A program made the translations under genes and the position numbers. Shown in pieces: positions 37 through 30,092 of a stretch of 30,092 nucleotides of DNA (position 1 is the stretch's first letter; each line of letters opens with the position of its first letter). The notes beneath the pieces are model-generated. The model was given only the letters and a program-made list of their open reading frames with translations. It was not told the DNA's origin and searched no databases. The stretch lies in UHGV virus genome UHGV-0106597. One strand, 5' to 3'. Origin of the DNA: a virus.

Positions 37-69
37 GATAAAAAAAACCCCCACATCATGTGGGGGAAG
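37..69. repeat. att core, left copy of a 33-bp direct repeat flanking the prophage (gataaaaaaaacccccacatcatgtgggggaag)
   Basis: Identical 33-mer at 30060..30092; contains a perfect 9-bp hairpin (cccccacat/atgtggggg) next to an A8 run, i.e. a terminator-like structure when read on the minus strand. Confidence 0.8.
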
Positions 70-131
70 ACAGGGATGGTGTCACAAAAAAGCACCTAAC
101 CTGATGATATAAATGGATTTATATCAAGCGC

Positions 132-150
132 TGTCCACATAGCGTCCACA
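132..150. promoter_or_regulatory. Putative integrase arm-type binding sites: two direct copies of GTCCACA (reverse complement TGTGGAC) one helical turn apart
   Basis: tgtccacatagcgtccaca; an almost identical pair sits at 29959..29977 at the other prophage end. Confidence 0.55.
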
Positions 151-164
151 TCGACCATAAATAA

Positions 165-184
165 AGCCCCTCAACTGAGGGGCT
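165..184 (-). terminator. Rho-independent terminator downstream of ogr (hairpin flanked by A/T runs on both sides, possibly bidirectional)
   Basis: agcccctca-ac-tgaggggct followed by attttt on plus and preceded by aaataaa. Confidence 0.6.
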
Positions 185-194
185 ATTTTTGTGA

Positions 195-413
195 TCACAT
201 CCACATAATTTGCTGCCCTGACGGCAACGGGTGCGGCCTCACGGCGTGGACTTCTCCCGGCTTCACGATGTATCGCTGTACCGACTCATAAGTGATGAAC
301 GTGGCGCTGCAATTCACGTTCTGGCACTGGTGATAACGCTCTTTTGTCGTGTCAGTGATATAGCGGCTTGTACGCGCATGTGCGGCATGCTGGCATAAAG
401 GACAATGAAACAT
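195..413 (-). CDS. ogr: Late transcription activator Ogr, zinc-finger protein (72 aa)
   Basis: Translation MFHCPLCQHAAHARTSRYITDTTKERYHQCQNVNCSATF... recognised as P2 Ogr with its C4 cysteines; ATG at 413..411 chosen over the TTG-initiated longer track ORF. Confidence 0.9.
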   Translation of the reverse strand: MFHCPLCQHAAHARTSRYITDTTKERYHQCQNVNCSATFITYESVQRYIVKPGEVHAVRPHPLPSGQQIMWM

Positions 414-494
414 CGCGAGCACCTCTTCCGGTTTTGTTGATGGTGCCATTTTAGTTAATTTATCCTTATAAAACAAACAGATAAAATAAAAACA

Positions 495-1658
495 TCACTC
501 ATCATCTTCTGTTTCGTACTCCACATCAGAAAGCCTGACCTCAAGCTCTAAGGACGTCGTGAAACCGCTATTATTCAGAAAATGTGTCACCTTAGTGATT
601 GTCCAGTCCTGCTCGTCTATGACGCGCTTAAAGCCTGACACTTTGACCGGCGTTTCCGTGTAAATATCTGCCCGACCAGTAGCCAGACTGATGGAGAACT
701 CCGCAACGCCCCGTTGCAGCTTATCCCACTTTGCCTGAGCGGCGCGCATGGCCTGCGCTTTTGTGGCATATACCGTAGTCAGGGCAAAAACGTTGTCAGC
801 TTCACCGGCCATGTATTCACCTTCGCGCGCTTCCGGTACTTTTGGCGCTTTCTTCTGCGTGACCGGTTTCGCTTTGGGGTGCTCCAGTGCGCGCAGGTGT
901 TTCTCTTTCTTTTTGCGTTTCAGTTTTACCTTCTGCTTTTGCGGCTTCGGGTCTTTGGTGTGTAACCACTTTGCCGTTACGCCGGTGTAAGCTCCACGGT
1001 CAGCAATCGCAAAATGATGACGGTCGCCGTCGCTGCGGGTGATGGTAATCTGCGGGATTTTTTTACCGCTGGCCGTCACCCCCTGCCCCGCTTTGAGAAA
1101 CAGCAGTTTTCCCATTTTTACCGACACCTCACCGCCGTTGCGTTCAGCAAGGCGGGTCAGGAATTTCGCATCAGACTCCTGCGACTGGTCGATATGCGGA
1201 ATTTTAATTCCGGCCAGTGACGGCGCGACACTGGCTTCCAGCCTGTTACGGGAGGCTATCGCCTCAACAATCGCGCCGAGCGTGGTGTCATGCCAGGAGC
1301 CTTCCCGGCGGGAATTAAGCGTCCCGCGGAAATCTGCACTCCGGGCGCGGATGGTAACCACATCCGGCGCGCCCCGGTGTTCAACCTCATCAACGGTAAA
1401 TTTCCCTTTGCATACCAGGGCAAAACCTTTCCAGCCGATATACACCGTCAGGACAGCGCCACGAATCGGTAGCCCGACCTGCCCGTCGGCGTCGTTCAGT
1501 TCAATATCAAGCTGGTCAGCCTCAAAGCCCCGGTTATCCGTCAGGGTCATGCTCATCAGACGGTCGCTGATATTGCCGGTAATATCCCTGCTGTCGAGCA
1601 TCAGCATGTAATCCGGCGTCAGCGTACTGCCTGCATCAAATGTCAGCGCATCCAGCAT
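495..1658 (-). CDS. D: Tail protein D (late gene D)
   Basis: 387-aa product with lysine-rich central linker; position between U and ogr as in P2; start overlaps U stop (TAATG). Confidence 0.85.
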   Translation of the reverse strand: MLDALTFDAGSTLTPDYMLMLDSRDITGNISDRLMSMTLTDNRGFEADQLDIELNDADGQVGLPIRGAVLTVYIGWKGFALVCKGKFTVDEVEHRGAPDVVTIRARSADFRGTLNSRREGSWHDTTLGAIVEAIASRNRLEASVAPSLAGIKIPHIDQSQESDAKFLTRLAERNGGEVSVKMGKLLFLKAGQGVTASGKKIPQITITRSDGDRHHFAIADRGAYTGVTAKWLHTKDPKPQKQKVKLKRKKKEKHLRALEHPKAKPVTQKKAPKVPEAREGEYMAGEADNVFALTTVYATKAQAMRAAQAKWDKLQRGVAEFSISLATGRADIYTETPVKVSGFKRVIDEQDWTITKVTHFLNNSGFTTSLELEVRLSDVEYETEDDE

Positions 1659-2151: not shown

Positions 2152-4599
2152 TTAACCGTCATGCATCATGCTGGCACGGGCGCGCGCACGTTTATCCCGC
2201 TCGTATTTTTCGAGTGCATCCTGTAACTGGCGGTCGAGCTGTGTCCCCGGCGCAGTACCGCCCGTCAGGTTGATGTGATATTCGTTTTTACTCTGGTCCA
2301 CATAAGAGCGGCCAGCCGGTGCCGTGACCGGCTGATAAGCCTGATAACCTGCATAAGAGCTGGCCGCCGGAATATAACCACCGGTGCCATACGTGGCGGC
2401 ATGAGTTCTGGCGGCGGTCTGGTCAAGCGTGCCTGACTCTTTGTTGATGACGCCAAGTTTTTCCAGTACCCAGTCAATACCGCCGCGCAGTTTGTTGAAC
2501 GCATTAAGCGGCAGCATCAGCGCGTCAGCCAGTGCCTGCCCGAACATGACGCCCGTGTCACGGCAACGGTTCAGGGTGTCCTGGGTGGCTTTGACCGGGG
2601 CAATCAGGTTTTTAAACCACTGCCACGCGGCCTGTAACTTTTCGCCCAGCCAGTCGAACACCGGCTTAAGTGGCGTGAACAGTTCCCCCACCGGCGCAAA
2701 TGCCGCTTTCAGCCCTTCCACCACACCGCCAAAGAATGCGCTGACAGGCTCCCAGTATTTACGGATAAGCAACGCCCCGGCGACAATGGCGGCCACCACG
2801 GCCACAACCGGCCAGCTAATCGCCCCGATGGCGGTCATAACAGCACTGCCAACCGTCGTGAAGACTGCCCCCATTGCGCCTGCTGCCGCGATGATGGCAT
2901 TGATGCCAGTGATAACCGGCCAGGCTACAAGACCAATGGCACCGATGATGCCAATAAGCGCCAGCGCGCCACCGACAATGAGGCCGATGGTTGACGCCAG
3001 TGATTTGTTTTTCTGGATCCAGCCGTCGAGTTTTAACACATACTTTGTGGCCGTCTGCGTGAGCTTACGCAGTGCGCCTTCCTGCTGGTCAAACAGGTCT
3101 GTCCCCACCGCCTCATAAGCGGACTGAAACTCCTTAAAGTCACCGCCGAGGTTGTCCTGCATGATATTTACCAGCTCGGCAGTCTTCCCGTCTGAGGCTT
3201 TAAACGCAGCGGTCAGTTTGTCCAGCTTTCCGGTTGAGGCGGCAGTCATCAGCACGGCGGCGGCTGAGCTGGCCTCCTCCCCGAAAATAGTTTTCATGTA
3301 TTCAGCCTGCTGGGCAGTACCGAGCCGGTTTTTCTCAAAACTGGCCTGCATTTCTTTCAGAATGGTAAATACTGGCCGGGTGTTTCCCTTGCTGTCTGAG
3401 GTTTTCACACCAAGCTCTTTCAGTGCATCCCATGCTTTTCCCGTCGGTGCCTGCAGGCGGCTTAACACGGCACGGCTTCCCGTCCCCGCCATTGAGCCTG
3501 TGATTTTTGCATCATGCAGCGCCCCGACCATTGCGGCGGTTTCTTCAATGCTGACACCGGCATTTTTTGCCACAGGTGCGGCATAGGTCAGCGCATCGCT
3601 CATGCCGTCAAAATCGGCGGCGGTTTTGTTCATCGTCATGGAGAGAACATCCCCGATATGAGCGACCTTATCGTTTGAAAGCTGAAAGGCGGATTTCATC
3701 CCCATCAGCAGGGCGGCGTTTTCTTCCATCGTGCGGCGGTTCGCCAGCGCCATGTTCAGCGTGACCGGCGTTGCCGCCTGAATGGCATCAACATCCCCAC
3801 CGGCTTTCGCAATAATAATCTGCGCACCGGCCGCATCATCCGCCGAGGCGGCGGTATTGTCGCCGAGCTGGCGCGCCTGTTTGCGTAGCGCGGCCATTTC
3901 GGCGGAATCTTTTGCCACACCGAGCACGGCCTGCAATTCTGAGTTTTTCTGCGCAAACTCATAACCGGGCATCAGCAGCTTAACTCCGGCCATCGTTCCC
4001 GCCGCCGCAATCCCCACACCGGCAGCGCCCACCGAGGCCATATTTCCGGCCAGTTCCTTGCCTGCCTGATAACGCTGTTTGACTGCGTTAAGTTTTGCCT
4101 GTTGCGCACTGACACGCGCCAGCGCGTCGCGCTGACGGTTAAGCTGTGCGGTGGTTTCACTGATACGGTTTTTCAGTCCCTGCTCATCATGTGCAAGATT
4201 GCGGGTATTAATTCCCACAGCGGCCAGTTCCCGCTGCTGGCGCTTAACGGAATCCGTCAGGCGGTTATATTTCGCCTGTAAGTCCTCCGCCGCACGCTTT
4301 GCGGATTCCAGCACTTTCGCCTGAGCACGGGTCGGACGTTCGGTGTTTTTAAACTGTGTGGCAAGGGCTTCAGCTTCCTGCCGAGCCTTTTCAAGTGCAT
4401 GACCAGTCACGGCGAGCTGTGCGCTGGTCTTGCGAAATCCCTCAATACGGGATGCCTGACCGTTCAGCTCGCGCAGTGATTTTTGTGTTTCCCGGATATC
4501 CCCCGACAGCGATTTGCTCGCTGTGCGGATGGATTTAAACGGGCGGGATGCCTGGTCAACAGCCCTGAGCAATACCTGTAATTTTACATTGTTACTCAT
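2152..4599 (-). CDS. T: Tail tape measure protein T
   Basis: 815-aa product with coiled-coil N-terminal part and Gly/Ala-rich hydrophobic central segments; same length as P2 gpT. Confidence 0.9.
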   Translation of the reverse strand: MSNNVKLQVLLRAVDQASRPFKSIRTASKSLSGDIRETQKSLRELNGQASRIEGFRKTSAQLAVTGHALEKARQEAEALATQFKNTERPTRAQAKVLESAKRAAEDLQAKYNRLTDSVKRQQRELAAVGINTRNLAHDEQGLKNRISETTAQLNRQRDALARVSAQQAKLNAVKQRYQAGKELAGNMASVGAAGVGIAAAGTMAGVKLLMPGYEFAQKNSELQAVLGVAKDSAEMAALRKQARQLGDNTAASADDAAGAQIIIAKAGGDVDAIQAATPVTLNMALANRRTMEENAALLMGMKSAFQLSNDKVAHIGDVLSMTMNKTAADFDGMSDALTYAAPVAKNAGVSIEETAAMVGALHDAKITGSMAGTGSRAVLSRLQAPTGKAWDALKELGVKTSDSKGNTRPVFTILKEMQASFEKNRLGTAQQAEYMKTIFGEEASSAAAVLMTAASTGKLDKLTAAFKASDGKTAELVNIMQDNLGGDFKEFQSAYEAVGTDLFDQQEGALRKLTQTATKYVLKLDGWIQKNKSLASTIGLIVGGALALIGIIGAIGLVAWPVITGINAIIAAAGAMGAVFTTVGSAVMTAIGAISWPVVAVVAAIVAGALLIRKYWEPVSAFFGGVVEGLKAAFAPVGELFTPLKPVFDWLGEKLQAAWQWFKNLIAPVKATQDTLNRCRDTGVMFGQALADALMLPLNAFNKLRGGIDWVLEKLGVINKESGTLDQTAARTHAATYGTGGYIPAASSYAGYQAYQPVTAPAGRSYVDQSKNEYHINLTGGTAPGTQLDRQLQDALEKYERDKRARARASMMHDG

Positions 4600-5075: not shown

Positions 5076-5594
5076 TCACAGGCCGATATTGCGGCGGTGT
5101 TGCTCCAGCCGGTCGACGCCGTTCACCTTCTCAATCATGTTGATGGTGTCGATTTCGACCAGCTCCTTACCGTCCATCGTCAGCCGGAAATAGGTGCAGA
5201 CCACGGAGATTTTCGACTCGGTGTCTTCTCCCTGTTTGCCCTCGCCGGTGTCGATTTCTTTCTGACGTCCACGCATGACCACCTCGACGGCCACCGTTTC
5301 GCCGGTATCGTCGCGCTGGTAAGAGCCTGCAAAACGAATCGGTACGGCATCCACACCGGTTGCGGCGTAAAGCTCCCAGATAACCGAATCCGGGAAGCCA
5401 CCGAGCGACCACTCCATTGACAGCGCATCGTCATCAAGGCCGAGGTCTACCGGTGCGCTGCCGTTCATCCCCGCACCGCGATAGTTTTCGAGCTTACGGG
5501 TCAGTTTTGGCAGCGTAACGGACTTCGCGACGCCCTGATAGCTGTAGCCGTTCAGAAAGACGTTCATTAACTTGAGTTTGCGCGGCATTGCCAT
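5076..5594 (-). CDS. FII: Tail tube protein FII
   Basis: 172-aa product, P2 FII-like, downstream of sheath gene. Confidence 0.9.
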   Translation of the reverse strand: MAMPRKLKLMNVFLNGYSYQGVAKSVTLPKLTRKLENYRGAGMNGSAPVDLGLDDDALSMEWSLGGFPDSVIWELYAATGVDAVPIRFAGSYQRDDTGETVAVEVVMRGRQKEIDTGEGKQGEDTESKISVVCTYFRLTMDGKELVEIDTINMIEKVNGVDRLEQHRRNIGL

Positions 5595-5606
5595 CGGTCA
5601 GGCTCC

Positions 5607-6797
5607 TTAATTGCTGTTAACCGAGGTGACCAGATTTGCCAGGTATTTATCGGTAATACGCTGGCGCAGGGTCAGGTTTTCAAGAGGAGGCACCGGTGTA
5701 TAGTCGTAGTCGATATACAGTTTTCCGGCCTTGAGGGTTTCCGCATCGTTGGATTCTTCGCTGAACCAGCAGGTCGCATCCACGATATAGCCGTTTGTTT
5801 TCAGCTCACGGAATTTGGCATTGATGCCGTCAACGATGTCGCGAATCAGCGTTGCGGTGATGGGCTTGTCCACCGCCCACATGTGCGCCTCAGCCATCGT
5901 GTCGGCCAGCACCTGCGCGGTGCGGGTGTAGTTTTCAAAGAGGAACAGCGGGTCATCAGAGCAGGTACGGTTACCCCAGAATCGGAAACCGTCGCGGCGA
6001 ATCAGCGTAGTGACGCCTGACTCGTTAAGCAGGTCAGCATCGGTGCCGGACTCCTGCAAATCCCAGAATACAGAGGCGCTGATGCCGGTAACACCGTTTA
6101 CCCCGACGTTGGACAGCGTTTTATGCCAGCCCTGCTCCTGGTCGATTTTAGCGCGCAGCCCCAGCGCACGAGCGGTGGCATACGCGGTGGCGGTGGTACT
6201 GGTGACCGTATCCCATGCGAGGAAATCCGGCCAGATGACCATCAGCTCACGCTGGCTGAAATTCTGGCGGTAGGCTTTCACCTCGGAAATGGTCTTACAG
6301 CCCCATGCGCTGATATACCCGAAAGCGCGCAGCTTCTGACAGACTGATGCCAGTGCTACAGCCACCTCTTTGGTATCCAGTCCCGGCACACCAAGAATAC
6401 GCGGTTTAACACCGGTTACCGACTCCGCCGCCAGCAGGGCTTTCAGTCCGGTGTACTGACCGTTTTCGTCGGTGGTGCCGATGATATTGGAAACGGTCTG
6501 CGCAAGTTTCGTTTCTTCGTCGTCGCCGGTGCCGTCCTCCACGCGCACAACAACGGTGACCGGTTTTGACTGGTCGGCGATAGCCTGCAACGATGCCGCC
6601 AGCGTGCCTTTTTTACCGGCCTTTGCAATTGCGCTCTGCACATTGGTAATCAGCACCGGTTTATTGAGGGGGAAGGTTTCCGCATCCGCATCGCTGGCCG
6701 TGCAGACCATGCCAACAATGGCAGTGGATACGGTGGAAATGACGCGGGTGCCGTCGTTAATCTCCAGCACCTGCACGCCGTGATGATAGTCACTCAT
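5607..6797 (-). CDS. FI: Contractile tail sheath protein FI
   Basis: 396-aa product, P2 FI-like. Confidence 0.9.
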   Translation of the reverse strand: MSDYHHGVQVLEINDGTRVISTVSTAIVGMVCTASDADAETFPLNKPVLITNVQSAIAKAGKKGTLAASLQAIADQSKPVTVVVRVEDGTGDDEETKLAQTVSNIIGTTDENGQYTGLKALLAAESVTGVKPRILGVPGLDTKEVAVALASVCQKLRAFGYISAWGCKTISEVKAYRQNFSQRELMVIWPDFLAWDTVTSTTATAYATARALGLRAKIDQEQGWHKTLSNVGVNGVTGISASVFWDLQESGTDADLLNESGVTTLIRRDGFRFWGNRTCSDDPLFLFENYTRTAQVLADTMAEAHMWAVDKPITATLIRDIVDGINAKFRELKTNGYIVDATCWFSEESNDAETLKAGKLYIDYDYTPVPPLENLTLRQRITDKYLANLVTSVNSN

Positions 6798-6856
6798 CCG
6801 TTTAACTCCGTGGTTAATGGGTGAGTGGTATTTTCAGTTGTGCCGGAGATGTCAGG

Positions 6857-7450
6857 CTATTTGTCCCGGTTGGCTAAGGGATGACACAATTTATTCTTTG
6901 TCGCTGATGAGGGGAATTTCTTATAGAGCGTGGACAGGCTAATATCAAAAATCAGCGCCACGCGTTGACGAGATTCCCCCGCAGCCAGCAACCGTCCGAC
7001 CTGCTCCCACTCACTCGCGGTGAGTTTCGGACGTCTGCCACCAATACGACCTTTGGCTCTGGCCGCTTCCAGTCCGGCGCGTGTCCGCTCGACAATGAGT
7101 TCTCGCTCCATTTCAGCCAGGGCACCCATCACATGAAAGAAAAAACGCCCCATCGGCGTGCTGGTATCAATAGCATCCGTCAGACTGCGAAAATTAACGC
7201 CGCGTTCGCGCAGTTCCTCAACCAGAATGACCAGATGCCGCATACTACGCCCCAGCCTGTCCAGCTTCCAGACTACCAGAGTGTCACCTGCTGATAATGT
7301 TCTGAGCAGTTTTTTCAGTCCCGGTCTGTCGGACTTCGTGCCGCTGATTTTATCCTCAAAAATCCGCTCGCATCCTGCGCACTCCAGCGCGTTACGCTGC
7401 AATTCCGTGTTCTGGTCATTTGTTGATACGCGGACATAGCCAATAAGCAT
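6857..7450 (-). CDS. Serine DNA invertase, Hin/Gin/Cin/Pin family
   Basis: N-terminal MLIGYVRVSTNDQ (catalytic Ser motif), resolvase core, C-terminal HTH (...GRRPKLT...STLYKKFP); lies directly beside the invertible segment. Confidence 0.9.
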   Translation of the reverse strand: MLIGYVRVSTNDQNTELQRNALECAGCERIFEDKISGTKSDRPGLKKLLRTLSAGDTLVVWKLDRLGRSMRHLVILVEELRERGVNFRSLTDAIDTSTPMGRFFFHVMGALAEMERELIVERTRAGLEAARAKGRIGGRRPKLTASEWEQVGRLLAAGESRQRVALIFDISLSTLYKKFPSSATKNKLCHPLANRDK

Positions 7451-7505
7451 GATGGATCCCCTGAATAAAAACCGGGGATGATGCCAGTTAGCCGTAATCT
7501 CTGCA

Positions 7506-7531
7506 TTTTCTTAAACGTTGGTTTAGGAGAA
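7506..7531. other. Invertase crossover site, invertase-proximal (hix/gix-like 26-bp imperfect palindrome, core TT at 7518..7519)
   Basis: TTTTCTTAAACG TT GGTTTAGGAGAA; inner half matches the inner half of the site at 9352..9377 in inverted orientation (11/12). Confidence 0.7.
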
Positions 7532-8029
7532 GGCTCAGCATTGCCTGTTGGCGTACCTGTTCCGTGGCCCTCAGCCACTCCGCCAACAGGCTGGCTGAAA
7601 TGCAACGGAGCAGCTTTTTCTGCTGAAGAATACCCGGAACTGGCAAAGGCTTACCCGACAAATAAATTGCCTGATTTACGTGGTGAGTTTATTCGTGGCT
7701 GGGATGACGGACGTGGTATGGATACGGGGAGGGCAATATTATCAGCTCAGGGCGATGCCATACGTAATATCTATGGTGAGTTCAAGACTGTAAACACCGA
7801 AAATTATTCAATATGGGAATCAGTAGGCTCTTTTAAGGGGGCAGTGGTGCCTTTGAACCCCTCAACGAACAATAGTTATTTCTCCTTAATCAGAAGTATG
7901 GTGACAGAAAGAACAGATGGCGCTGTTTACCCAAAAGTGATTGGCCTTGATGCTTCAAGAATTGTTCCAACTGCAAACGAAAACCGACCTCGTAACATTG
8001 CCTTTAATTATATCGTGAGGGCTGCCTGA
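7520..8029 (+). CDS. Alternative tail fibre C-terminal segment (Sv'-like), promoterless and silent in this orientation; contains a phage tail collar-type domain
   Basis: Reading frame opens at the crossover site (..GLGEGSALPVGVPVPWPSATPPTGW...); in-frame fusion to H constant part is predicted after inversion. Confidence 0.7.
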   Translation, partial: GLGEGSALPVGVPVPWPSATPPTGWLKCNGAAFSAEEYPELAKAYPTNKLPDLRGEFIRGWDDGRGMDTGRAILSAQGDAIRNIYGEFKTVNTENYSIWESVGSFKGAVVPLNPSTNNSYFSLIRSMVTERTDGAVYPKVIGLDASRIVPTANENRPRNIAFNYIVRAA

Positions 8030-8631
8030 TGAATAAAGCCGTATTAAATAACGAACTCATTGCCATAAAAGCGGGAGACATAACCGTTTATAATTATGAT
8101 GGTGAAACGCGGGAATATATTTCCACATCAACTGAATATCTTGCGGTTGGCGTCGGTATACCGGCATGTTCTTGTTTAGATGCACCAGTTACACATAAAG
8201 CTGGTTATGCAATCTGCCGTTCTGCAGATTTTAACTCATGGGAATATGTGCCAGACCATCGCGGTGAAATCATCTATAGCACCGAAACAGGAGAATCGAA
8301 AGAAATCACAGCTCCGGGTGATTACCCTGAAAATACAACCACTATCGCCCCGTTAACGCCATATGATAAATGGGATGGTGAGAAATGGGTGACGGATACC
8401 GGGGCACAGCATAGCGCCGCAGTAGATGCAGCAGAAGCACAGCGCCAGTCGCTGATTGATACTGCAATGGCTTCCATCAGTCTGATTCAACTGAAATTGC
8501 AGGCCGGACGTAAACTGACGCAGGCAGAAACCACCCGACTTAACGCTGTGCTGGATTACATTGACGCGGTGACGGCAACAGATACCAGCACCGCGCCGGA
8601 TGTCATCTGGCCTGAACTGCCGGAGGCGTAG
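8029..8631 (+). CDS. Alternative tail fibre assembly chaperone (U'-like)
   Basis: 200-aa product with Tfa-like conserved C-terminus (...DTSTAPDVIWPELPEA); start overlaps Sv' stop (TGATG). Confidence 0.75.
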   Translation: MNKAVLNNELIAIKAGDITVYNYDGETREYISTSTEYLAVGVGIPACSCLDAPVTHKAGYAICRSADFNSWEYVPDHRGEIIYSTETGESKEITAPGDYPENTTTIAPLTPYDKWDGEKWVTDTGAQHSAAVDAAEAQRQSLIDTAMASISLIQLKLQAGRKLTQAETTRLNAVLDYIDAVTATDTSTAPDVIWPELPEA

Positions 8632-9061
8632 GCCATTCAATATCTGGCGCACTGGAGGTATCAACCAGTTCCAGTGCGTTCAGATAATCCAGCCACAAAT
8701 TATATTGCGCCAGTTCCTCACCATTCAGACGACCAATAGCCGCTTTACCAGGCCATTGTTTACTGTTCATGTATTCGTTGGCATGGTTAATCAATAATTG
8801 CCTCTCTGATTCGGCCTGTTCAATAAGTTCCTCATGTGATGGTGGAGGTATTTCAACCCATGCAGGATTGCCATAACCGTCCGACCCTCTGATTTTTCCA
8901 GTCGGCGGGAATCCTAAAAACTCGGTTGCATCCTCCTCGCTAATATCAGTGAATGTGGCGATTTCATCTTCGCTCAATTTATAATCGGAAATTGACGCAG
9001 CAGGATAGAATAATGCATTCTTTGGATCAAATTTATACATTTCAATCACCCCGCTATCCAT
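8603..9061 (-). CDS. G: Tail fibre assembly chaperone (P2 G / Mu U-like), active orientation
   Basis: 152-aa product ending ...DTSSAPDIEWPTPPAVQAR; 3' end overlaps the convergent U' gene by 29 bp. Confidence 0.8.
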   Translation of the reverse strand: MDSGVIEMYKFDPKNALFYPAASISDYKLSEDEIATFTDISEEDATEFLGFPPTGKIRGSDGYGNPAWVEIPPPSHEELIEQAESERQLLINHANEYMNSKQWPGKAAIGRLNGEELAQYNLWLDYLNALELVDTSSAPDIEWPTPPAVQAR

Positions 9062-18950: not shown

Positions 18951-19123
18951 TGTCAGGAGTCCTGAATAGTGATTAGAGGAGTCACATGTCGGCATCAGTT
19001 TCCCGACGATGCGCATCCTCCGCCATCAGTCCCGGATGGCTTATCACTGACACAACAGCACCTTAGCGAATCGCGGGGCGCGACTCAGTAGCCTTGCCGT
19101 GTATTCATCACGGCGAGGTATTC
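18951..19123. promoter_or_regulatory. Divergent late promoter region between O and P (expected Ogr-dependent promoters)
   Basis: Inferred from gene arrangement only; I could not find a clean TGT-N12-ACA activator box. Confidence 0.35.
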
Positions 19124-21930: not shown

Positions 21931-21936
21931 ACATCG

Positions 21937-21958
21937 CCGCCTGCGGGCGGCTTTTTTA
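21937..21958 (+). terminator. Rho-independent terminator after Q
   Basis: gccgcc-tgcg-ggcggc followed by tttttt. Confidence 0.65.
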
Positions 21959-22099
21959 CACCCCGCCATCACGCCCTCACACGCTCATCACCGCACAAAA
22001 AATCCCGCAGACACACCAACGCCTCAACGGGCAGACTAAGCGCCGTCACGACGCGCTCAGACGCTGAAAAAATAAAATCAGCACCACCGCCAGCGCGCA

Positions 22100-22118
22100 G
22101 TGCTTTCCCCGCCTCGCC
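22100..22118. other. cos cohesive-end sequence (19 nt)
   Basis: GTGCTTTCCCCGCCTCGCC is the reverse complement of GGCGAGGCGGGGAAAGCAC, which I recall as the P2 cohesive end; lies about 170 bp beyond Q. Confidence 0.7.
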
Positions 22119-22281
22119 CGCCCGCTTCATGGAGCGCTTTTAATGCAGTTGCAATAACACATCAAAACATCGTCAATACAGGCGATTATAAACAATAAAA
22201 AACGATCGCTGCCGCATGCAAAATCATGCACTAAATGCATGTATTGAAGGGAAATTAGGAACGTGCTCGTTTGGGTCTAAA

Positions 22282-23178
22282 CTATGATTTCGACACAACT
22301 ATTTTCCCCAAATCAAAACTAAATTCGACATCCCCATTTACGATATTTTCATTTGTCACATGCTCATCAAAAAGGTCACTAACATCATACCCCGACTGAA
22401 ACACTGGGCTCATGATAGCCACGTCGGTGAATGGCTCTTTTTCATGTGTTATATAATATTGACCATAAACATTTGCAGATTTATCTGCATCATTAAGACT
22501 AAGGACTGTTTTTGCTTTGACTTCAGGCATCAGAGAAAAATCAATATTATTCAACAAACACAGTAAGATGCCTGCTATTGCTCTCCTGTTATTATCAAGC
22601 GGCATCAAGTCCACCCCTGGAATCTCCTTCCGAAGCAATATTTTCAGCTCATTAAATAAAGAGTCGAACTTAATTGCGTCAGAACAATTGAGTAACGACA
22701 AAGCTTCATTAATCATTCGCCCTTCATTGGAACCAATTTCTGGTGTTAACTTACAAACACCATCATTAACAATATACGATTTCTTGTTATTAAGCTTCTT
22801 CCTCGCTGTAATTACCTGCCCCCCCTTTAAGTTTAACTTCTCCTTTAAAAACTCATCACTGAACATTCTTAATTGCAGTCTGATTAATGTAGGTAAGTAT
22901 TTCGGGTATTCATTTAACTCTGGTTTAACAGCATGCTTATCGCGTCCAAATTTTAAACTTAATAACAAATGATTCCTCAGCATGATATCCTTTATCTCGC
23001 CTTGATCTCTCCGATGATTATGGGCAACAAAACTCCCAATTTCAAAAATACACTTGGGCGCACTCGGCAACTCACGGGCCGTAACAAAAAGAACATCAAT
23101 ATCACTATCAGTGAAACTCCCATCCTTTAATCTTCTCAACACTCTCTCTATTCTTGAGATTGCTTTACTTTTATTCAT
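22282..23178 (-). CDS. Hypothetical protein (298 aa) encoded in an AT-rich accessory island occupying the P2 old/tin slot; function unknown
   Basis: Long uninterrupted ORF with ATG start; roughly one-third GC by eye versus a GC-rich prophage backbone; no family recognised. Confidence 0.7.
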   Translation of the reverse strand: MNKSKAISRIERVLRRLKDGSFTDSDIDVLFVTARELPSAPKCIFEIGSFVAHNHRRDQGEIKDIMLRNHLLLSLKFGRDKHAVKPELNEYPKYLPTLIRLQLRMFSDEFLKEKLNLKGGQVITARKKLNNKKSYIVNDGVCKLTPEIGSNEGRMINEALSLLNCSDAIKFDSLFNELKILLRKEIPGVDLMPLDNNRRAIAGILLCLLNNIDFSLMPEVKAKTVLSLNDADKSANVYGQYYITHEKEPFTDVAIMSPVFQSGYDVSDLFDEHVTNENIVNGDVEFSFDLGKIVVSKS

Positions 23179-23504
23179 GACATTCTTTCAACCTTAATCA
23201 ATATTTAATTTAAATAAACCATTCTCATACGCCAACCATACCTGTGACACCTGACAAACCAAATAAAAACAAAGGTACAGCGGATATTGGTATGTACAGC
23301 TATATTACACATAAACTCATGTTAGTAACATAAGATCTTCTTGTGAATATTTGTAATTTATTAGTTCACCAACATTAATCTTTCCAACCGTTATAAATCC
23401 AATCATATGCTGATACTCAAATGATGGCCAACTACCACCTCTCGCTGTTCGTTGTTCCCTCCAGCAGCACTGGAAGCATGTTTCAGTACTGCTGGGGTTT
23501 TCTA

Positions 23505-23708
23505 TCAACAACGTGGTAGCAGTGCAATTTTAGACTGTTCTATATCGTTAAACCGCACGTAATTATCCCGGACTATTTCGGCACACCCGACCAACTCGTC
23601 GGGCGTCAGATTTTCGTTGACCATAATCTGCTGTAGACGGTGAACAATAGCCATCAGCTTGATATTTTTAGTGTTATGTTGCGGTATCTCGCCTGGTATT
23701 CTGTGCAT
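23505..23708 (-). CDS. Hypothetical small protein (67 aa)
   Basis: ATG at 23708..23706 overlaps the stop of the upstream gene (TAATG); no family recognised. Confidence 0.4.
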   Translation of the reverse strand: MHRIPGEIPQHNTKNIKLMAIVHRLQQIMVNENLTPDELVGCAEIVRDNYVRFNDIEQSKIALLPRC

Positions 23709-24163
23709 TATCCAAGCCACCCGTTTTGCTTTGCACGCTCAATCTGTTCATCTGAATAGTTCCATGCTCCATCCGTGGCAACCATTGCCCCGCCAGACAT
23801 CCCCGTCTCTGGTTCATACATAACAGCAAGGCCGAGCTGATGCATAATTTCATGATTAATTCTGAATACCAGACCACGCTCACTAAGTTCTTTCCAGTTC
23901 ACAATCTCATATGCGCCTGTATTAAGCAGCTCAATACTTAGCAAGACATAATCTTCCAGCCAGTCTGACAGGTCAGTAACATCTGTTATCCGGGCTTCAA
24001 CCTTTCGCCCCGTATACACACCCTGCCCCCATTCATGCAAAATCAACGTGTCTCCGCGCTCATAATTACGGTCATTTTTCCGAAACTCTGCGCGTTTCTT
24101 TCCTTCCAGCACAAGGTCGAAATATTTTGCGTGCAGCTTTACCTCGTGAATTTTTGCCATCAT
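23708..24163 (-). CDS. Hypothetical protein with N-terminal ASCH/PUA-like (DUF3850-like) domain and a C-terminal HExxH motif
   Basis: MMAKIHEVKLHAKYFDLVLEGKKRAEFRKNDRNYERGDTLILHEW fits the ASCH pattern; HEIMH at the C-terminus; start codons overlap the A stop (ATGATG). Confidence 0.55.
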   Translation of the reverse strand: MMAKIHEVKLHAKYFDLVLEGKKRAEFRKNDRNYERGDTLILHEWGQGVYTGRKVEARITDVTDLSDWLEDYVLLSIELLNTGAYEIVNWKELSERGLVFRINHEIMHQLGLAVMYEPETGMSGGAMVATDGAWNYSDEQIERAKQNGWLG

Positions 24164-26445
24164 GTCCACTCCATTACTGTTGAGAATCCCGGCCACTCAT
24201 CAGCGACCGGATATGTGAATTTTTTCCCGTCATAATTTACAGTCGCGCCACGCGCCAACGCCTCAAGCTCCCATCGCTGCGGCCTTATACCGTTCTGAGC
24301 AAGGTCAACGCGGATACGGGTAATTTGCATTCTTTCCGACCGGGTCAGTCTGGCCGATGGTGCAATTTCATGTGGTTTTAACGGGCTTCCGTTTCTTTGC
24401 TGACGATTTGGCGTTCTCAGGCCGTGTTTTAATGCGCCCCTGAGCGCCCTCACAACCTCCGGGTCATTCCATTCGATAACACCGTCATCAACCAGATTAA
24501 GCACTGCTGCGGCGTGCTCAGAAGGTGTGGGAGCCGGTAACGAAGTATCACAACCGGTGACCTTTCCACAGTTATTGACAGGACTCCGAGGCGCGGCGAT
24601 GCCGCTTTTTAAAGTCAAAGGCTCAACGACCGGAACTTTCGGCACAATGCGCCAGTCCGTCGTTCTGGTGATATGAATATGACGCGCGCCGAGATGCGGC
24701 GCGTAAATGCCGACCACTCTCTCGACTTCTTCCTCGTACTCGTTAACGTCATCCGACGGGCTACGGGCAACCCTGACAGTCTGACAATCGCGTGGGACAT
24801 TTGCCCCGCCCTGCGCGCTGATATACAACGCAAAATCACCACTGTCTGCGGCGGCGCGTGCAGCCTCGACGCGTTCGTCAAACTCATCAGCAATGCTGAC
24901 GCCGCGAGGCAATTTGCGTAGTTCACGGTAAGCCCCCATTGTCGGCAGACCAACCGTTTTAAATTGCGGGATACGCCACGTTGACGCCCATGCGGTAACA
25001 GCCGCTGCAGTGTCTTTCAGCGGTCTGCCGGTATCGTTATCGAGCTGCCCATCCAGTGCATAGCCGTCGATATTTTTTGAGATGTATTTCGCGATATACC
25101 CCGCAGCACCGCCCCGATTAAGATGTTTTGCCTGAAAACGGTTTCGCGCAGCTCCTCTTTCGTCGCCATCCTCTTTGAGCGCGTAGCGACGCATGATTTC
25201 GATAATCTGGTTACGCTGGCGTGGATTACAAAAAAGCATCATATGCCAGTGCGGCGTTCCGTCGTGGTGTGGCTCGACGACTCGCAAACCGTAGACCTGT
25301 AAATCATTATCCTTGAATGCCGTGCGCATCAGGCTCCAGATACGGCAGAGATAACGCTGCGCATCCTTTGGATTAAATGCCTCATCGTTCCAGCCGTGAT
25401 TTAGCTGGACGGTTTTACTTTCGCCTTTTCCAACCTGACGTGTCGGGTGATACTTTGACGGCGCGGTCAGCGTGATAAACATCCCCACATCACCTTCTGC
25501 GGCGGCGTAACGCTCAATACCGGCAATGGTGTTCATCAGCTCCATCCGGCGAATTTCAGGATTAGAAATACTGCCCATCACCTTACTGATAAGGTCGATG
25601 CGCTCGCCTGTTTCCCTGTTTTCGAGATCACACGATTTAAGAAATTCCAGATTTGCCTGGCGGCGTGCACGCACATCACGAATGGCATGTTTACTGGCAT
25701 AAGGAGAACGGTCTTTATTGACCTCCCCGACAGCAATCAGTAACGCCTCATGCCAGCGCATACGCTGGCCTTTAAGCTGACTAATCCACCACTCATCGTT
25801 AAACAGACGGGCAATGGCAGAATATGCCTGCCTCGTGGTCATCTGTCCTTTACGGTATTTTTTCCAGTAGAGAGGGGAAATATTGAAAGCACGTGCAGCG
25901 CCAGCAACATGACCATAGAGGTGAGCCTGCGCCTCATCCGTAAACAGCGATTCTTTTTCGCCATGCGCATCCACCCAGGCATCGCTGAGTTCCTCATACA
26001 TCATGAAAAGCTGCGATGAGATACGGGCGGCAAACTTTTTCAGCTCCTTGTCATTCATTCCCGGCAGGCGCGCATAGTGGTCACGCTCAGCCAGAAACAG
26101 CATCGACGCGTCGGTGTTCATTTCATGGCGCTGATTCACACGCTCAATGCGCGGCCATAAACGACGCTGAAAAGTGGATGTGAGGAAATAAAACCCGTGC
26201 ACCGGGCTTTTATTGCGCCGGATGTAGTCATAGCGTGACGTAAACAGCGAGCGCAAAAAGTAAGGCAGGCGGTTAATCGTGGATAAAACACCTTGCACCT
26301 GACGCATCTCGTCACGTGTAAGGGGTCTTTCGCGCCCGACAGCCTCGCGTGGCGCGTTCCATGCATAAGCACCGGTAAACGCCTTACCGGTGCCTGCAGC
26401 AAATGCTGACGGAGGGACAAAACGCCCGGAGGCTTTAACGGCCAT
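24160..26445 (-). CDS. A: Replication initiation protein A (rolling-circle endonuclease)
   Basis: About 760-aa product with HUH-like GTPHWHMM and tyrosine-containing GYIAKYISKNIDGY motifs; ATG at 26445 preferred over the TTG at 26487. Confidence 0.85.
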   Translation of the reverse strand: MAVKASGRFVPPSAFAAGTGKAFTGAYAWNAPREAVGRERPLTRDEMRQVQGVLSTINRLPYFLRSLFTSRYDYIRRNKSPVHGFYFLTSTFQRRLWPRIERVNQRHEMNTDASMLFLAERDHYARLPGMNDKELKKFAARISSQLFMMYEELSDAWVDAHGEKESLFTDEAQAHLYGHVAGAARAFNISPLYWKKYRKGQMTTRQAYSAIARLFNDEWWISQLKGQRMRWHEALLIAVGEVNKDRSPYASKHAIRDVRARRQANLEFLKSCDLENRETGERIDLISKVMGSISNPEIRRMELMNTIAGIERYAAAEGDVGMFITLTAPSKYHPTRQVGKGESKTVQLNHGWNDEAFNPKDAQRYLCRIWSLMRTAFKDNDLQVYGLRVVEPHHDGTPHWHMMLFCNPRQRNQIIEIMRRYALKEDGDERGAARNRFQAKHLNRGGAAGYIAKYISKNIDGYALDGQLDNDTGRPLKDTAAAVTAWASTWRIPQFKTVGLPTMGAYRELRKLPRGVSIADEFDERVEAARAAADSGDFALYISAQGGANVPRDCQTVRVARSPSDDVNEYEEEVERVVGIYAPHLGARHIHITRTTDWRIVPKVPVVEPLTLKSGIAAPRSPVNNCGKVTGCDTSLPAPTPSEHAAAVLNLVDDGVIEWNDPEVVRALRGALKHGLRTPNRQQRNGSPLKPHEIAPSARLTRSERMQITRIRVDLAQNGIRPQRWELEALARGATVNYDGKKFTYPVADEWPGFSTVMEWT

Positions 26446-26710
26446 ATGAGCCAAAAGCCTCTGAACAACGCTTGCTGAGTTGCTCAACCTGCGCGTTTAA
26501 ATCAGCAAAAGACTTTGCGCTTCCGGTCAGAATATCGTGATGCATCAGGCCGGAAACGAGCTGGCTTAATTTCGGGTAATAACCAACCACCGCCAGCCAT
26601 TCCTGACCGGCGTTTTTACCGCTTTCCGCTCTCTTTTTCTCGTGGAGAATAAACTGGAAGCTGTCACTGGTAACGACATAACGTTCGCCAATTTCAATAC
26701 GAATACTCAT
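26435..26710 (-). CDS. Hypothetical early-operon protein (position of P2 orf83)
   Basis: 91 aa, assigned by position only. Confidence 0.5.
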   Translation of the reverse strand: MSIRIEIGERYVVTSDSFQFILHEKKRAESGKNAGQEWLAVVGYYPKLSQLVSGLMHHDILTGSAKSFADLNAQVEQLSKRCSEAFGSYGR

Positions 26711-28021: not shown

Positions 28022-28215
28022 TTCCAGACCCTCCGGCTTTTCAGAAAGGTCAGAGCCTTCTTTAACGGACTCTGTTTTTTGGTGCGGATAATGATTCCCT
28101 TACGCCCCTTACCGTGGGTGATGGTGAAGTCAATCGCCCTGGGGCTTTCGTTACGCAATAACTGAGCAATACAACGCGGCTCATTCATAATCACAACCCC
28201 ATCCACAAAAGCCAT
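28018..28215 (-). CDS. Hypothetical small protein between cox and B
   Basis: 65-aa ORF; assigned by position only. Confidence 0.4.
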   Translation of the reverse strand: MAFVDGVVIMNEPRCIAQLLRNESPRAIDFTITHGKGRKGIIIRTKKQSPLKKALTFLKSRRVWK

Positions 28216-28478
28216 GCATCACGCTGTTCAACCGGTCGGTTATAAAACGCCTCACGTACAGCGCGATTAAACTCAGGAATGAAAACCCATTTTTCACCGG
28301 CACGAGCCTTCGGTTTGCAAGGATCACGCAATTCAATAATTGGTAATTTATTTGCCTTCACCATTTCACTGACGGCTGTCTTTGGCTTCCCTAATAAATC
28401 AGCAAATTTATCCACATGAACCGCATCAAGCGGATACTGAATCACATAATTTTCAGCGTCCATATATGGTACCCTCAT
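28191..28478 (-). CDS. cox: Cox, excisionase and repressor of the lysogenic promoter
   Basis: C-terminal ...GEKWVFIPEFN...NRPVEQRDAWLLWMGL resembles the P2 Cox C-terminus; first gene of the early operon, divergent from C. Confidence 0.7.
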   Translation of the reverse strand: MRVPYMDAENYVIQYPLDAVHVDKFADLLGKPKTAVSEMVKANKLPIIELRDPCKPKARAGEKWVFIPEFNRAVREAFYNRPVEQRDAWLLWMGL

Positions 28479-28599
28479 AGGATCCAGCTCTTTCTAAACC
28501 ACTCAAAACCGTTTAGACGCTGGTTTATTCTCAAATCAATGGAACCTATATAGGTTCCAGTTTTGAGGGAATTTAGTCCCTATATAGGCACCATGTCAA
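28479..28599. promoter_or_regulatory. Immunity switch region: expected divergent Pe/Pc promoters and operators
   Basis: 18-bp perfect palindrome ggaacctatataggttcc (28541..28558) and a second cctatatagg at 28579..28588; a further aaacc...ggttt dyad near 28496..28525. Confidence 0.55.
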
Positions 28600-28893
28600 A
28601 TGAAATTAAGCGAAAAGATTAAGGCCTTGCGTGAGGCTGAAGGGCTAAGCCAATCAAAATTCTGTGAAATCATAGAGTTACCGCTAAGCACACTTAAAAA
28701 ATATGAAGGAGGAAACTTTGAACCCGGTGGCACAGCTTTGCTAAAAATCACTATGCATCCCACATTCCAAAAATATGCTCTATGGCTTATGACAGATAAA
28801 ACCGCGCCGGACGCAGGACAAATCGCACCGGCTCTCGCGCACATTGGGCCAGAGTCAACAGAGTCCAACCACTCCGCGAAAAGGATTGGCTAA
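28600..28893 (+). CDS. C: Immunity repressor C
   Basis: 97 aa; C-terminal ...FQKYALWLMTDKTAPDAGQIAPALAHIGPE... resembles the P2 C repressor; N-terminal HTH. Confidence 0.8.
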   Translation: MKLSEKIKALREAEGLSQSKFCEIIELPLSTLKKYEGGNFEPGGTALLKITMHPTFQKYALWLMTDKTAPDAGQIAPALAHIGPESTESNHSAKRIG

Positions 28894-28962
28894 CTCTATA
28901 TAAAGATTACATTTTCACCATTTGCTACCAAGATGGTGAATACAGCGCCGGAGGGCTTTCTT

Positions 28963-29943
28963 ATGGCAATTAAGAAGCTCGATGATGGTCGCTATGAAGT
29001 GGACATTAGACCTCGCGGTCGCGACGGAAAACGCATCCGCAGGAAATTCGAAAGAAAAGCTGAAGCACTAGCATTTGAGCGATACACAATCGCCAATGCC
29101 AGTCAGAAAGAATGGGGAGGCCAGCGAGCAGACCGCCGGACTTTGAGTGAGTTGCTGGACATCTGGTGGAAATATCACGGGCAAAACCACGAGCATGGAA
29201 CAAAAGAGTTTAATCATCTACTCAAAACCATCAGCGGCATAGGTGATATACCAGTGAGCAGGATGAGTAAAAGGGCTTTGATGGATTATCGTTCCATGCG
29301 ACTACGTGATGGTATCAGTGCCGCAACGATAAACCGTGACATGTACAGATTATCCGGCATGTTCACAAAATTAATTCAATTGGATGAATTTTCCGGGCAA
29401 CACCCAATTCACGGACTGCCGCCACTGGCGGAGGCCAACCCTGAAATGACGTTCCTGGAAAAAGCAGAAATCGAAAAACTGTTAAATGTTTTGGCTGGTG
29501 ATGACTTACTTGTCGCGCTTTTATGTCTGAGCACTGGAGGAAGATGGACGGAAGTTGCCACGCTAAAACCAGCACAGATTACAAATTGCAGGGTTACCTT
29601 CCTGAAAACCAAAAACGGTAAAAAGCGAACCGTGCCGATTTCTGAGGAACTGGAGAAAAAAGTTAAAGAGGAGGCCAGCGCCAAATTATTCAAAGTTGAT
29701 TATGAGAAATTTTGCGGGATTTTACGCAGAGTGAAACCTGATATACCACCCAATCAGGCAACCCACATCCTGCGGCATACATTCGCAAGCCATTTCATGA
29801 TGAATGGGGGCAATATAATCGCACTGCAACAGATTCTGGGACATGCGAGCATTCAGCAGACGATGGCCTATGCGCACCTTGCGCCTGACTATCTGCAAAA
29901 TGCCGTCGCTCTGAATCCACTAAAAGGCGGAGTGACGTTATAA
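28963..29943 (+). CDS. int: Tyrosine integrase, P2 Int family
   Basis: Product starting MAIKKLDDGRYEVDIRPRGRDGKRIRRKF...; C-terminal HILRHTFASHFMMNGG...LGHASIQQTMAYAHL catalytic region. Confidence 0.9.
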   Translation: MAIKKLDDGRYEVDIRPRGRDGKRIRRKFERKAEALAFERYTIANASQKEWGGQRADRRTLSELLDIWWKYHGQNHEHGTKEFNHLLKTISGIGDIPVSRMSKRALMDYRSMRLRDGISAATINRDMYRLSGMFTKLIQLDEFSGQHPIHGLPPLAEANPEMTFLEKAEIEKLLNVLAGDDLLVALLCLSTGGRWTEVATLKPAQITNCRVTFLKTKNGKKRTVPISEELEKKVKEEASAKLFKVDYEKFCGILRRVKPDIPPNQATHILRHTFASHFMMNGGNIIALQQILGHASIQQTMAYAHLAPDYLQNAVALNPLKGGVTL

Positions 29944-29958
29944 ATTTCCCCCTCTGAG

Positions 29959-29977
29959 TGTCCACATAGTGTCCACA
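29959..29977. promoter_or_regulatory. Putative integrase arm-type binding sites (two direct TGTCCACA copies, int-proximal arm)
   Basis: tgtccacatagtgtccaca, same spacing and orientation as 132..150. Confidence 0.55.
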
Positions 29978-30059
29978 CTCAAGAAATTTTGAAACCGCTC
30001 CAAACCCTTACAGCTTTCGATAAGTAACTGTTTTTACTTTTGATTGCATGTAAGTATTT

Positions 30060-30092
30060 GATAAAAAAAACCCCCACATCATGTGGGGGAAG
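30060..30092. repeat. att core, right copy of the 33-bp direct repeat (truncated by window end)
   Basis: Identical to 37..69. Confidence 0.8.

Follow-up and report, generated by a model that had tools for sequence, protein, structure and literature searches.

Several temperate phages integrate at the 3' ends of small RNA genes, with 186 and HP1 using tRNA genes, Fels-2 and SopEΦ using ssrA, sdsR serving as a site in Salmonella, and P2-type phages using rybB and cyaR (PMC3448106, PMC3032704, PMC3333887); P2-type prophages at the cyaR sRNA locus were described in the E. coli W genome (PMC3032704). In that genome, a further element was recorded as "cpxP-fieF: Wphi1 (P2)" (PMC3032704), and the WΦ integration site was given as MG1655 position 4104392, with the core of phage L-413C stated to be identical to the WΦ core (PMC3448106). 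Prophages between cpxP and fieF have also been reported in O157 and S. Infantis. The system to which the locus described here is compared is already known, as the WΦ and L-413C specificity at cpxP-fieF is published (PMC3032704, PMC3448106).

The window, meaning the whole stretch of DNA analyzed (30,092 nt, UHGV virus genome UHGV-0106597), is a complete 30.0-kb P2-like prophage between E. coli fieF and cpxP. We consider it very probable that it is a complete Peduovirus prophage of the WΦ integration class, with its attB within the CpxQ gene directly downstream of cpxP. A search of the window identified exactly 2 copies of a 33-mer, GATAAAAAAAACCCCCACATCATGTGGGGGAAG, at 37..69 and 30060..30092, both on the plus strand, and dinucleotide-preserving shuffles had matches in 0 of 100, with 0 expected by chance. 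An earlier note on this DNA had placed the prophage ends at a 33-bp direct repeat; the repeat is exact at both ends, but its length had to be corrected. The right copy ends at the window edge, and in the lysogen 13P477T the match continues for 14 bases past the 33-mer, so that the true direct repeat is 47 bp, GATAAAAAAAACCCCCACATCATGTGGGGGAAGACAGGGATGGTGTC, with flanking sequence that differs at once on either side. The attL core is the full 47-bp copy at 37..83 (plus strand), the same sequence that WΦ and L-413C have as attP core, and the attR core is represented by its first 33 of 47 bp at 30060..30092 (plus strand), identified by the exact repeat match and 13P477T, with the rest cut off by the window end. 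Measured between the starts of the two cores, the prophage unit spans 30,023 bp. The aligned parts of 13P477T (1..1200 and 5162..26461) are 99.8-99.9% identical to the window, and BLAST identified a segment at about 7518..9368 that is inverted in 13P477T relative to the window; an inverted-repeat search missed the short crossover sites of this invertible segment.

The gene order at both ends agrees with the expectation that ogr adjoins the left copy and int the right. RefSeq, which annotates the identical locus, places the late-gene activator gene ogr at the prophage left end (195..413, minus strand). The int gene (28963..29943, plus strand) encodes a tyrosine integrase of 326 aa, of which 322 residues are identical to WΦ Int (99% identity, vs 52% to P2 Int). 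Beside int are encoded the helix-turn-helix immunity repressor C, upstream of int (28600..28893, plus strand; annotation and domain search), and Cox, excision directionality factor and switch repressor (28191..28463, minus strand; Pfam Phage_Cox, E = 1.2e-23, and RefSeq). The stop end of cox at 28191 is firm, and its start, which follows the 273-nt gene annotated for a related lysogen, is approximate, with the mechanical ORF spanning 28191..28478. PADLOC returned no match for the cargo ORFs.

The flanking host genes are fieF on the left and cpxP on the right. Just past the right end of the window lie the remaining 14 bp of the core, CpxQ nt 1-14, and the cpxP stop codon, which in 13P477T is 23 nt beyond the core end. 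Of 5426 complete E. coli genomes, 4592 contained the reconstructed empty site uninterrupted, with one copy of the core at this locus. The remaining 834 (15.4%) had the site divided precisely at the core, with query halves 1-247 and 201-447 matching apart from each other and having just the core in common. The prophage-free genomes thus each carry the uninterrupted attB once, as anticipated, and the empty single-copy site together with the identity to the WΦ attP bears out the reading of the repeat as the attL/attR core of a P2-type prophage. Joined in silico, the right arm, core, and left arm of the window are collinear over their full length with free-phage attP, and a 32.3-kb circular P2-like replicon with the 47-bp core was found in one assembly.

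The arms of the site also carry the elements of a P2-type attP, for which the arm consensus is tgTGGaCa (PMC3448106). On the int side (P' arm; 29959..29977, plus strand), exact copies of TGTCCACA were identified by sequence match at 29959..29966 and 29970..29977, spaced 11 bp, and the equivalent P'-arm site is annotated in P2, where it overlaps the int 3' end. On the ogr side, which is the P arm by P2 naming (132..150, plus strand), putative arm-type Int binding repeats matching the P2-type consensus comprise TGTCCACA at 132..139 and cGTCCACA, with one mismatch, at 143..150, again spaced 11 bp. Exact TGTCCACA occurs 4 times in the window against 1.06 expected, and 3 of the 4 copies are within the att arms. 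A conserved ATAAATGGATTTAT region at 101..127 in the ogr-side arm, about 35 nt from the core and present in every arm lineage, is homologous to the IHF site of the P2 attP. This putative IHF region was assigned by homology to the P2 annotation because an IHF consensus search of the window gave a single exact match, at 30051..30063 (minus strand) on the int side, which is not above chance. A bidirectional terminator hairpin was predicted downstream of ogr at 165..184 (terminator scan; fold -22 kcal/mol, z = -5.1), and the equivalent hairpin in P2 is annotated as terminator of both ogr and the F operon.

The repeat itself, with its run of 8 A and its perfect inverted repeat (9+1+9; CCCCCACAT-C-ATGTGGGGG), had been proposed to act as an intrinsic terminator on the minus strand. 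The predicted fold of its minus-strand RNA, an 8-bp stem with 6 GC pairs and a 3-nt loop followed by U8, agrees with this, as do a terminator consensus scan, which was terminator-like on the minus strand only, and the annotated 3' end of cpxQ. The predicted hairpin and U-tail occupy 40..66 (minus strand), with the stem-loop at 66..48 (CCCCCACA-UGA-UGUGGGGG) and U8 at 47..40. At attR, this hairpin is predicted to be the CpxQ/cpxP terminator, and at attL, it lies between the phage ogr end and fieF. The suggestion that the phage rebuilds the terminator of a host gene can now be given a transcript, namely cpxP and its 3'UTR-derived sRNA CpxQ. In MG1655, ncRNA cpxQ is annotated at 4106330-4106387 and its 3' end falls where the U-tract stops. 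In the minus-strand direction, the 47-bp core is CpxQ nt 15-58, including the terminator, plus ATC (3 further bases). The attL copy is away from cpxP and does not include CpxQ nt 1-14. In 13P477T, CpxQ is 58 nt long, begins 9 nt past the cpxP stop codon, and stops at the cpxP terminator; the attR sequence is 57/58 identical to K-12 cpxQ (b4716), the sole mismatch being a SNP in the hairpin loop. With the phage allele, the 58-nt CpxQ folds at -17.4 kcal/mol (z = -2.7), and the same energy is predicted for both alleles.

Rfam at gathering thresholds identified no family at the site. With permissive settings, the single result was a sub-threshold match to Hrs1 on the opposite strand, and no CpxQ family was matched; CpxQ was therefore assigned from the RefSeq MG1655 annotation and PMC9438474. 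A promoter scan of 1..600 found nothing and thus gave no support for independent expression of the CpxQ fragment at attL, and no terminator was predicted that would stop the C-int transcript ahead of cpxQ/cpxP, into which it would run in antisense. One 34-bp segment of the core was matched exactly by at least 120 sampled genome stretches, which came from many Enterobacterales genera. As the core is the 3' three-quarters of CpxQ, which is among the most conserved sRNAs of enterobacteria, its position would explain both this wide conservation and the use of one site by several distinct phage lineages.

The loop SNP, at core position 20 (window position 56), is T in the phage and G in K-12-type hosts. 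The T allele was identified in 4488 genomes at 5153 places and the G allele in 1088 genomes, never twice in one genome, and the site was occupied at similar frequencies in G hosts (162/1088, 14.9%) and T hosts (672/4338, 15.5%). About 162 G cores were followed by the phage ogr-side arm, i.e., were attL, although these lysogens are related by clonal descent, and we can vouch for the independence of only about 5 prophage configurations; no G was detected at attR among the lysogens searched. Our 8-nt-arm test for attR(G) recognized one arm variant only, with the mixed lysogens that were read carrying AAGTAATT or AAGCAATT, and we therefore added an arm-independent test of the G-core flanks. The host fieF-side flank was present on 59 of 60 evenly sampled G cores, the exception being an attL with an IS insertion. 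Three lysogens read directly had G at attL and T at attR, and the G-allele matches in IMG/VR were all attL (4/4), one of them from a second phage lineage. On the other side, several phage arm lineages part from the host directly past core position 45. That the host G was detected at attL but in no attR, together with this arm divergence, would place strand exchange within 57..81 (core positions 21-45), which argues for a crossover not at the hairpin loop but on its cpxP-proximal side. Natural segregation of a SNP would thereby narrow the crossover to 25 bp without an experiment. Within this stretch, an inverted repeat, AGACA (68..72) and TGTC (80..83), surrounds a 7-bp spacer, GGGATGG (73..79), which by its pattern is a candidate for the overlap region.

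The main competing account keeps the WΦ-type att site and centers strand exchange on the terminator palindrome, with CCCCCAC and GTGGGGG as the Int half-sites and the loop as the overlap, a reading to which the stress on the hairpin in the earlier note points. Tyrosine recombinases bind inverted repeats around an overlap of 6-8 bp, which this arrangement fits, and no dyad symmetry in the core is more conspicuous than the 9+1+9 palindrome. A SNP inside the overlap should, however, leave G about equally at attL and attR, contrary to the one-sided distribution in the approximately 162 genomes, and heterology there should lower integration, yet G and T hosts are occupied alike. We regard an exchange centered on the palindrome as unlikely. 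The asymmetry between attL and attR could in principle also arise if mismatches in an overlap heteroduplex were repaired with a bias, and we hold the cpxP-proximal crossover interval less firmly than the assignment of the att site, which nothing contradicts.

Two other accounts would dispute that assignment. The element could be P2 itself, or a close variant, at a secondary P2 site, given that its structural genes share about 96-97% identity with many "P2" entries and that some records with the attP of the window are named "Peduovirus P2" or "Escherichia phage P2". These P2-named records carry the WΦ-type int and attP, the reference P2 (NC_001895) differs in its core and Int, and the window core equals attB over 47 bp, as for a primary site, which makes this account highly improbable. 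Equally little credence can be given to an origin of the 47-bp repeat outside Int-mediated recombination, either as a transposition-like target duplication or through RecA-dependent recombination via a phage-borne cpxQ fragment. A stretch of 47 bp of perfect identity could in principle allow rare homologous recombination, but the same junctions are found in hundreds of genomes and also across several genera, the core lies between arm-type Int repeats beside int in a family whose site-specific system has been experimentally characterized, and the SNP segregates to one side, unlike crossovers scattered along a homology tract.

Under the preferred assignment, integration at a WΦ-type site, the tyrosine integrase would recombine phage attP with bacterial attB, aided by the arm-type sites, with IHF probably assisting and Cox assisting excision, roles that we infer for the WΦ-type site. 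The attB immediately follows cpxP and lies within the gene of CpxQ, the 58-nt sRNA derived from the cpxP 3'UTR, and because phage and host share 47 bp, integration would duplicate the core as attL on the fieF side by ogr and attR on the cpxP side by int. If strand exchange occurs cpxP-proximal to the terminator loop, at core positions 21-45 and with cleavage positions that are putative, the 3' end of CpxQ in lysogens would be phage DNA. The lysogen CpxQ would have its 5' part from host DNA and its loop, 3' stem half, and U-tail from phage DNA, so that the RNA is reconstituted exactly, and the 125 bp upstream of fieF would stay unchanged on integration. The phage may retain such a long core because CpxQ and the termination of cpxP must be preserved.

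As a prophage boundary, the finding is routine annotation: it fixes the element ends (core 37..83 and 30060 onward), names the integration class, and corrects the repeat length. It is modestly useful to recognize the WΦ site, published as "intergenic", as the 3' three-quarters of CpxQ, and work on CpxQ/cpxP expression in natural isolates may take into account that about 1 in 7 E. coli genomes has a prophage here. A literature search found no paper naming CpxQ as an att site or tying CpxQ to the WΦ site. A broader interpretation, which we consider quite unlikely, is that WΦ-class phages recombine inside CpxQ so that lysogeny could modify the Cpx envelope-stress response, and that the P2 family may prefer the terminators of Hfq-dependent sRNAs (cyaR, rybB, cpxQ). 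It would mean that the CpxQ 3' end is phage-encoded in about 15% of sequenced E. coli, that the phage converts the loop allele of K-12-type hosts, and that attL, downstream of ogr, holds a copy of CpxQ that is truncated at its 5' end and keeps the Hfq-binding terminator module whole.

Compared with P2, the locus shares the tgTGGaCa direct repeats of the arms, the IHF region, the Cox directionality factor, and the position of int by C-cox and opposite ogr. It differs in its chromosomal site, in its Int (52% identical), and in its core, that of P2 being AAAAAATAAGCCCGTGTAAGGGAGATT (27 bp, NC_001895), and with the core sequence and Int both differing, a P2 (locI) specificity was refuted. The earlier note had described the core as unlike that of P2 locI and suggested a different integration specificity, which is correct, but the specificity is not new, being the published one of WΦ and L-413C. 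Both WΦ (Peduovirus Wphi, NC_005056) and Yersinia phage L-413C (NC_004745) have the core at 47/47 between int and ogr, and the likeness to WΦ extends to Int (99%), the arm repeats, the order int - P' arm - core - P arm - ogr, and the cpxP-fieF locus. The joined arms and core of the window are 97.1% identical to the L-413C attP over 275 nt and 88% identical to the WΦ attP, and the int-side arm from the P' repeats to the core, at about 88% to WΦ, is likewise closer to L-413C (97%); the cargo and the tail-fiber module differ from those of WΦ. The WΦ site was published as intergenic (cpxP-fieF) and is here mapped onto the later-discovered cpxQ. As with the other phages that integrate at sRNA 3' ends, attB overlaps the 3' part of a conserved gene for a structured RNA, the core duplicates that part, and one junction rebuilds the gene, the difference being that CpxQ is derived from a 3'UTR, is processed by RNase E, and has its terminator in common with the cpxP mRNA.

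The 33-mer GATAAAAAAAACCCCCACATCATGTGGGGGAAG that the earlier note had placed at both ends of the prophage was confirmed as exact copies at 37..69 and 30060..30092, both on the + strand, with 0 matches in 100 dinucleotide-preserving shuffles. The right copy ends at the window's final base, and the window alone is insufficient to judge the length of the repeat. E. coli strain 13P477T was found to carry this prophage, with identities of 99.9% over window 1..1200 and 99.8-99.96% over 5162..26461 and with one segment inverted. Both junctions of the 13P477T prophage were read and added 14 further identical bases, giving a direct repeat (core) of 47 bp, GATAAAAAAAACCCCCACATCATGTGGGGGAAGACAGGGATGGTGTC, on either side of which the sequence diverges immediately. 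The repeat is therefore genuine, but its length is 47 bp and not the 33 bp first proposed; its left copy occupies 37..83, and the prophage unit measures 30,023 bp between the starts of the two cores. Extending the flanks, as had been suggested, also yielded the host genes: by annotation, fieF (- strand) lies left of the element and cpxP (- strand) right of it, the fieF ATG at 78 bp and the cpxP stop codon at 23 bp from the core.

By Pfam and by the annotation of the identical locus, the interior encodes a complete set of P2-type genes, ordered from the left as ogr, D, U, the tape-measure gene, tube and sheath, tail fibres, baseplate, lysis genes, capsid and terminase genes, portal, A, B, cox, C, and int; the interior shares 96-97% identity with many sequenced peduoviruses. 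As already recognized in the first reading of the sequence, the ogr gene (195..413, - strand) adjoins the left core (attL) and int (28963..29943, + strand) the right core (attR); attL is on the fieF side and attR on the cpxP side. An invertible tail-fibre module spans 6857..9368, comprising a serine invertase (Resolvase and HTH_7 domains; 6857..7450) and, beside it, the segment at ~7518..9368 that has the opposite orientation in 13P477T, with alternative fibre C-terminus and assembly genes at 7478..8029 (+), 8029..8631 (+), and 8603..9061 (-). Between the portal gene Q and the replication gene A, a cargo slot (21931..24196) carries a 298-aa ORF (22282..23178) that neither Pfam nor PADLOC matched and a DUF3850/ASCH and DUF7415 protein (23708..24196); 2 other lysogens with the same att site (L010 and L012) have a ParB-N protein, a hypothetical protein, and a Dcm methyltransferase in this slot instead.

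The predicted attB, assembled from the core with 200 bp of flank on each of its fieF and cpxP sides, was searched against 5426 complete E. coli genomes. It was contiguous at ≥98% identity in 4592 of them, in agreement with the expectation that relatives lacking the prophage hold a single, uninterrupted copy of the sequence. In 834 genomes (15.4%), attB was split, with the halves matching separately as query 1-247 and 201-447, so that their overlap is exactly the 47-bp core.

In the MG1655 RefSeq annotation, the ncRNA gene cpxQ (b4716, 58 nt) lies at 4106330-4106387, 9 nt past the cpxP stop codon, and the minus strand of the core corresponds to CpxQ nt 15-58 and 3 further bases. CpxQ is an RNase E-processed, Hfq-dependent sRNA from the cpxP 3'UTR that has been described as exceptionally conserved in enterobacteria (PMC9438474), with its 5' end serving as the seed for nhaB and cfa (PMC6755755). 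This seed (nt 1-14) is beyond the core and remains host-encoded. The hairpin previously seen in the repeat is the CpxQ/cpxP terminator, with an 8-bp stem, a 3-nt loop, and U8, and was terminator-like on the minus strand only; the predicted fold of the whole sRNA is -17.4 kcal/mol. The phage thus integrates into the terminator of a host transcript and rebuilds it, as had been surmised, and the 125 bp upstream of fieF are kept unchanged by integration. In the literature searched, we found no paper tying CpxQ to a phage attachment site. No Rfam family recognizes the cpxQ locus on the correct strand; a sub-threshold match to Hrs1 (RF02628; 41.4 bits, E = 7e-7) was identified on the strand opposite cpxQ (1316..1388, - strand, in the MG1655 record L007), and Hrs1 may be the CpxQ locus entered on the other strand. 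At attR, no + strand terminator was predicted from the int stop codon to cpxP (29944..30092, and 3584..4270 of record L002), so the C-int transcript of a lysogen could run antisense into cpxQ/cpxP. In the attP configuration, int would be followed by the bidirectional ogr terminator.

The prophage belongs with the P2-like phages of the WΦ integration class. Its integrase is identical to WΦ Int at 322 of 326 positions and only 52% identical to P2 Int. WΦ (NC_005056) and Yersinia phage L-413C have an identical 47-mer in the interval between their int and ogr genes. Reference P2, in contrast, has its own 27-bp core, which together with the low Int identity rules out P2 locI specificity. The earlier note was right that this is not the locI core and that the specificity differs from that of P2, but the site is already known: it appears as 'cpxP-fieF: Wphi1 (P2)' in the genome paper on E. 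coli W (PMC3032704), and Nilsson et al. placed the WΦ site at E. coli MG1655 position 4104392 and reported that the L-413C core is identical to that of WΦ (PMC3448106). Prophages between cpxP and fieF are also recorded for an O157:H7 strain and Salmonella Infantis. A virtual attP, joining the right arm, core, and left arm of the window as what would be the in-silico equivalent of an excision junction, was collinear from end to end with the attP of both L-413C (97.1% of 275 nt) and WΦ (88%). Pairs of TGTCCACA repeats 11 bp apart, in agreement with the published P2-type arm consensus tgTGGaCa (PMC3448106), are located on the ogr side (132/143, the copy at 143 with 1 mismatch) and the int side (29959/29970). 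The stretch ATAAATGGATTTAT at 101..127 corresponds to the annotated IHF region of the P2 attP and was found again in every phage arm lineage seen. All defining features of the WΦ class that can be tested in silico were present.

The core has 1 common polymorphism in E. coli, at position 20 (window 56) beside the palindrome centre, where the phage has T and K-12 has G. Since no 28-mer of the 47-mer lacks position 20, megablast searches with the core distinguish the two alleles. The T core was identified in 4488 genomes (5153 places) and the G core in 1088, never twice per genome; these genome counts exceed the genome total by 150, indicating about 150 lysogens with 1 copy of each allele. About 162 G cores (1088 - 926; query of G core plus ogr-side arm) run into phage DNA and are thus attL, whereas junction searches among the complete E. 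coli genomes found no attR junction with G. The SNP lysogens are non-independent events, with only about 5 distinguishable prophage configurations. In an even sample across all 1088 G cores, 59 of 60 had the host fieF-side flank, the lone exception being an attL with ISApl1 inserted directly beside the core and splitting it from that flank (1517..2548 in L013, E. coli E423). All 3 lysogens read end to end (GYB01, ECCWS199, and H9Ecoli) had G at attL and T at attR, and 4 of 4 G-allele matches in IMG/VR were attL, 1 from a different phage arm lineage. The host allele remains with the fieF flank, so the exchange would lie right of position 20, and in several phage lineages identity with the host ends directly after position 45. 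Judged from these alignments, strand exchange must therefore fall within core positions 21-45 (window 57..81). Site occupancy was 14.9% in G hosts versus 15.5% in T hosts, which further argues against position 20 being in the overlap region. Inside the interval, AGACA/TGTC(T) around the 7-bp spacer GGGATGG would fit the expected tyrosine-recombinase core geometry. As a consequence of an exchange right of position 20, CpxQ in every lysogen takes its loop, the 3' strand of its terminator stem, and its U-tail from phage DNA, and in K-12-type hosts the phage changes the loop base of the RNA from C to A, with the same predicted folding energy. T was at position 20 in all 121 core matches listed from species-representative Enterobacterales genomes, so the K-12 G is the derived allele and, with 1088 of the 5426 E. 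coli genomes carrying it, the minority one.

At least 120 DNA stretches from species-representative genomes contain an exact copy of one 34-nt segment of the core, with the genera listed including Escherichia, Salmonella, Citrobacter, Klebsiella, Enterobacter, Kosakonia, Kluyvera, Yokenella, Raoultella, Lelliottia, Mixta, and Erwinia; P2-like arms adjoin the core in a few of these. In IMG/VR, 86 contigs had this 34-nt segment, in several arm lineages. A circular 32,330-bp replicon from an E. coli assembly (L008, NZ_JBQJRQ010000002.1) has a core matching at 45 of 47 positions, an Int only 67% identical to that of the window, and different arm repeats, TTGTCTACA, so a second integrase lineage targets the CpxQ site. 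This replicon, annotated as a 'plasmid', is a P2-like phage genome. Prophage remnants of ~1.9 kb, keeping only ogrK, a partial C gene, and int between 2 intact cores, were identified in E. coli ECCWS199 (298..2211 of L011) and Citrobacter amalonaticus P55 (L049), and are internal deletions that left both att copies. The conservation of CpxQ makes it a broad-host landing site open to multiple phage lineages.

The original observation is hence confirmed, at a corrected repeat length of 47 bp, and its interpretation is supported. Mapping the core onto CpxQ and delimiting the crossover by the SNP add a little to what is known and do not define a new kind of system. As a general rule, temperate elements insert into small structured RNA genes at the 3' end, for which they bring a replacement (PMC3448106, PMC3032704, PMC3333887), and the CpxQ site fits this rule, like tRNA genes, ssrA, the sdsR locus, rybB, and cyaR.
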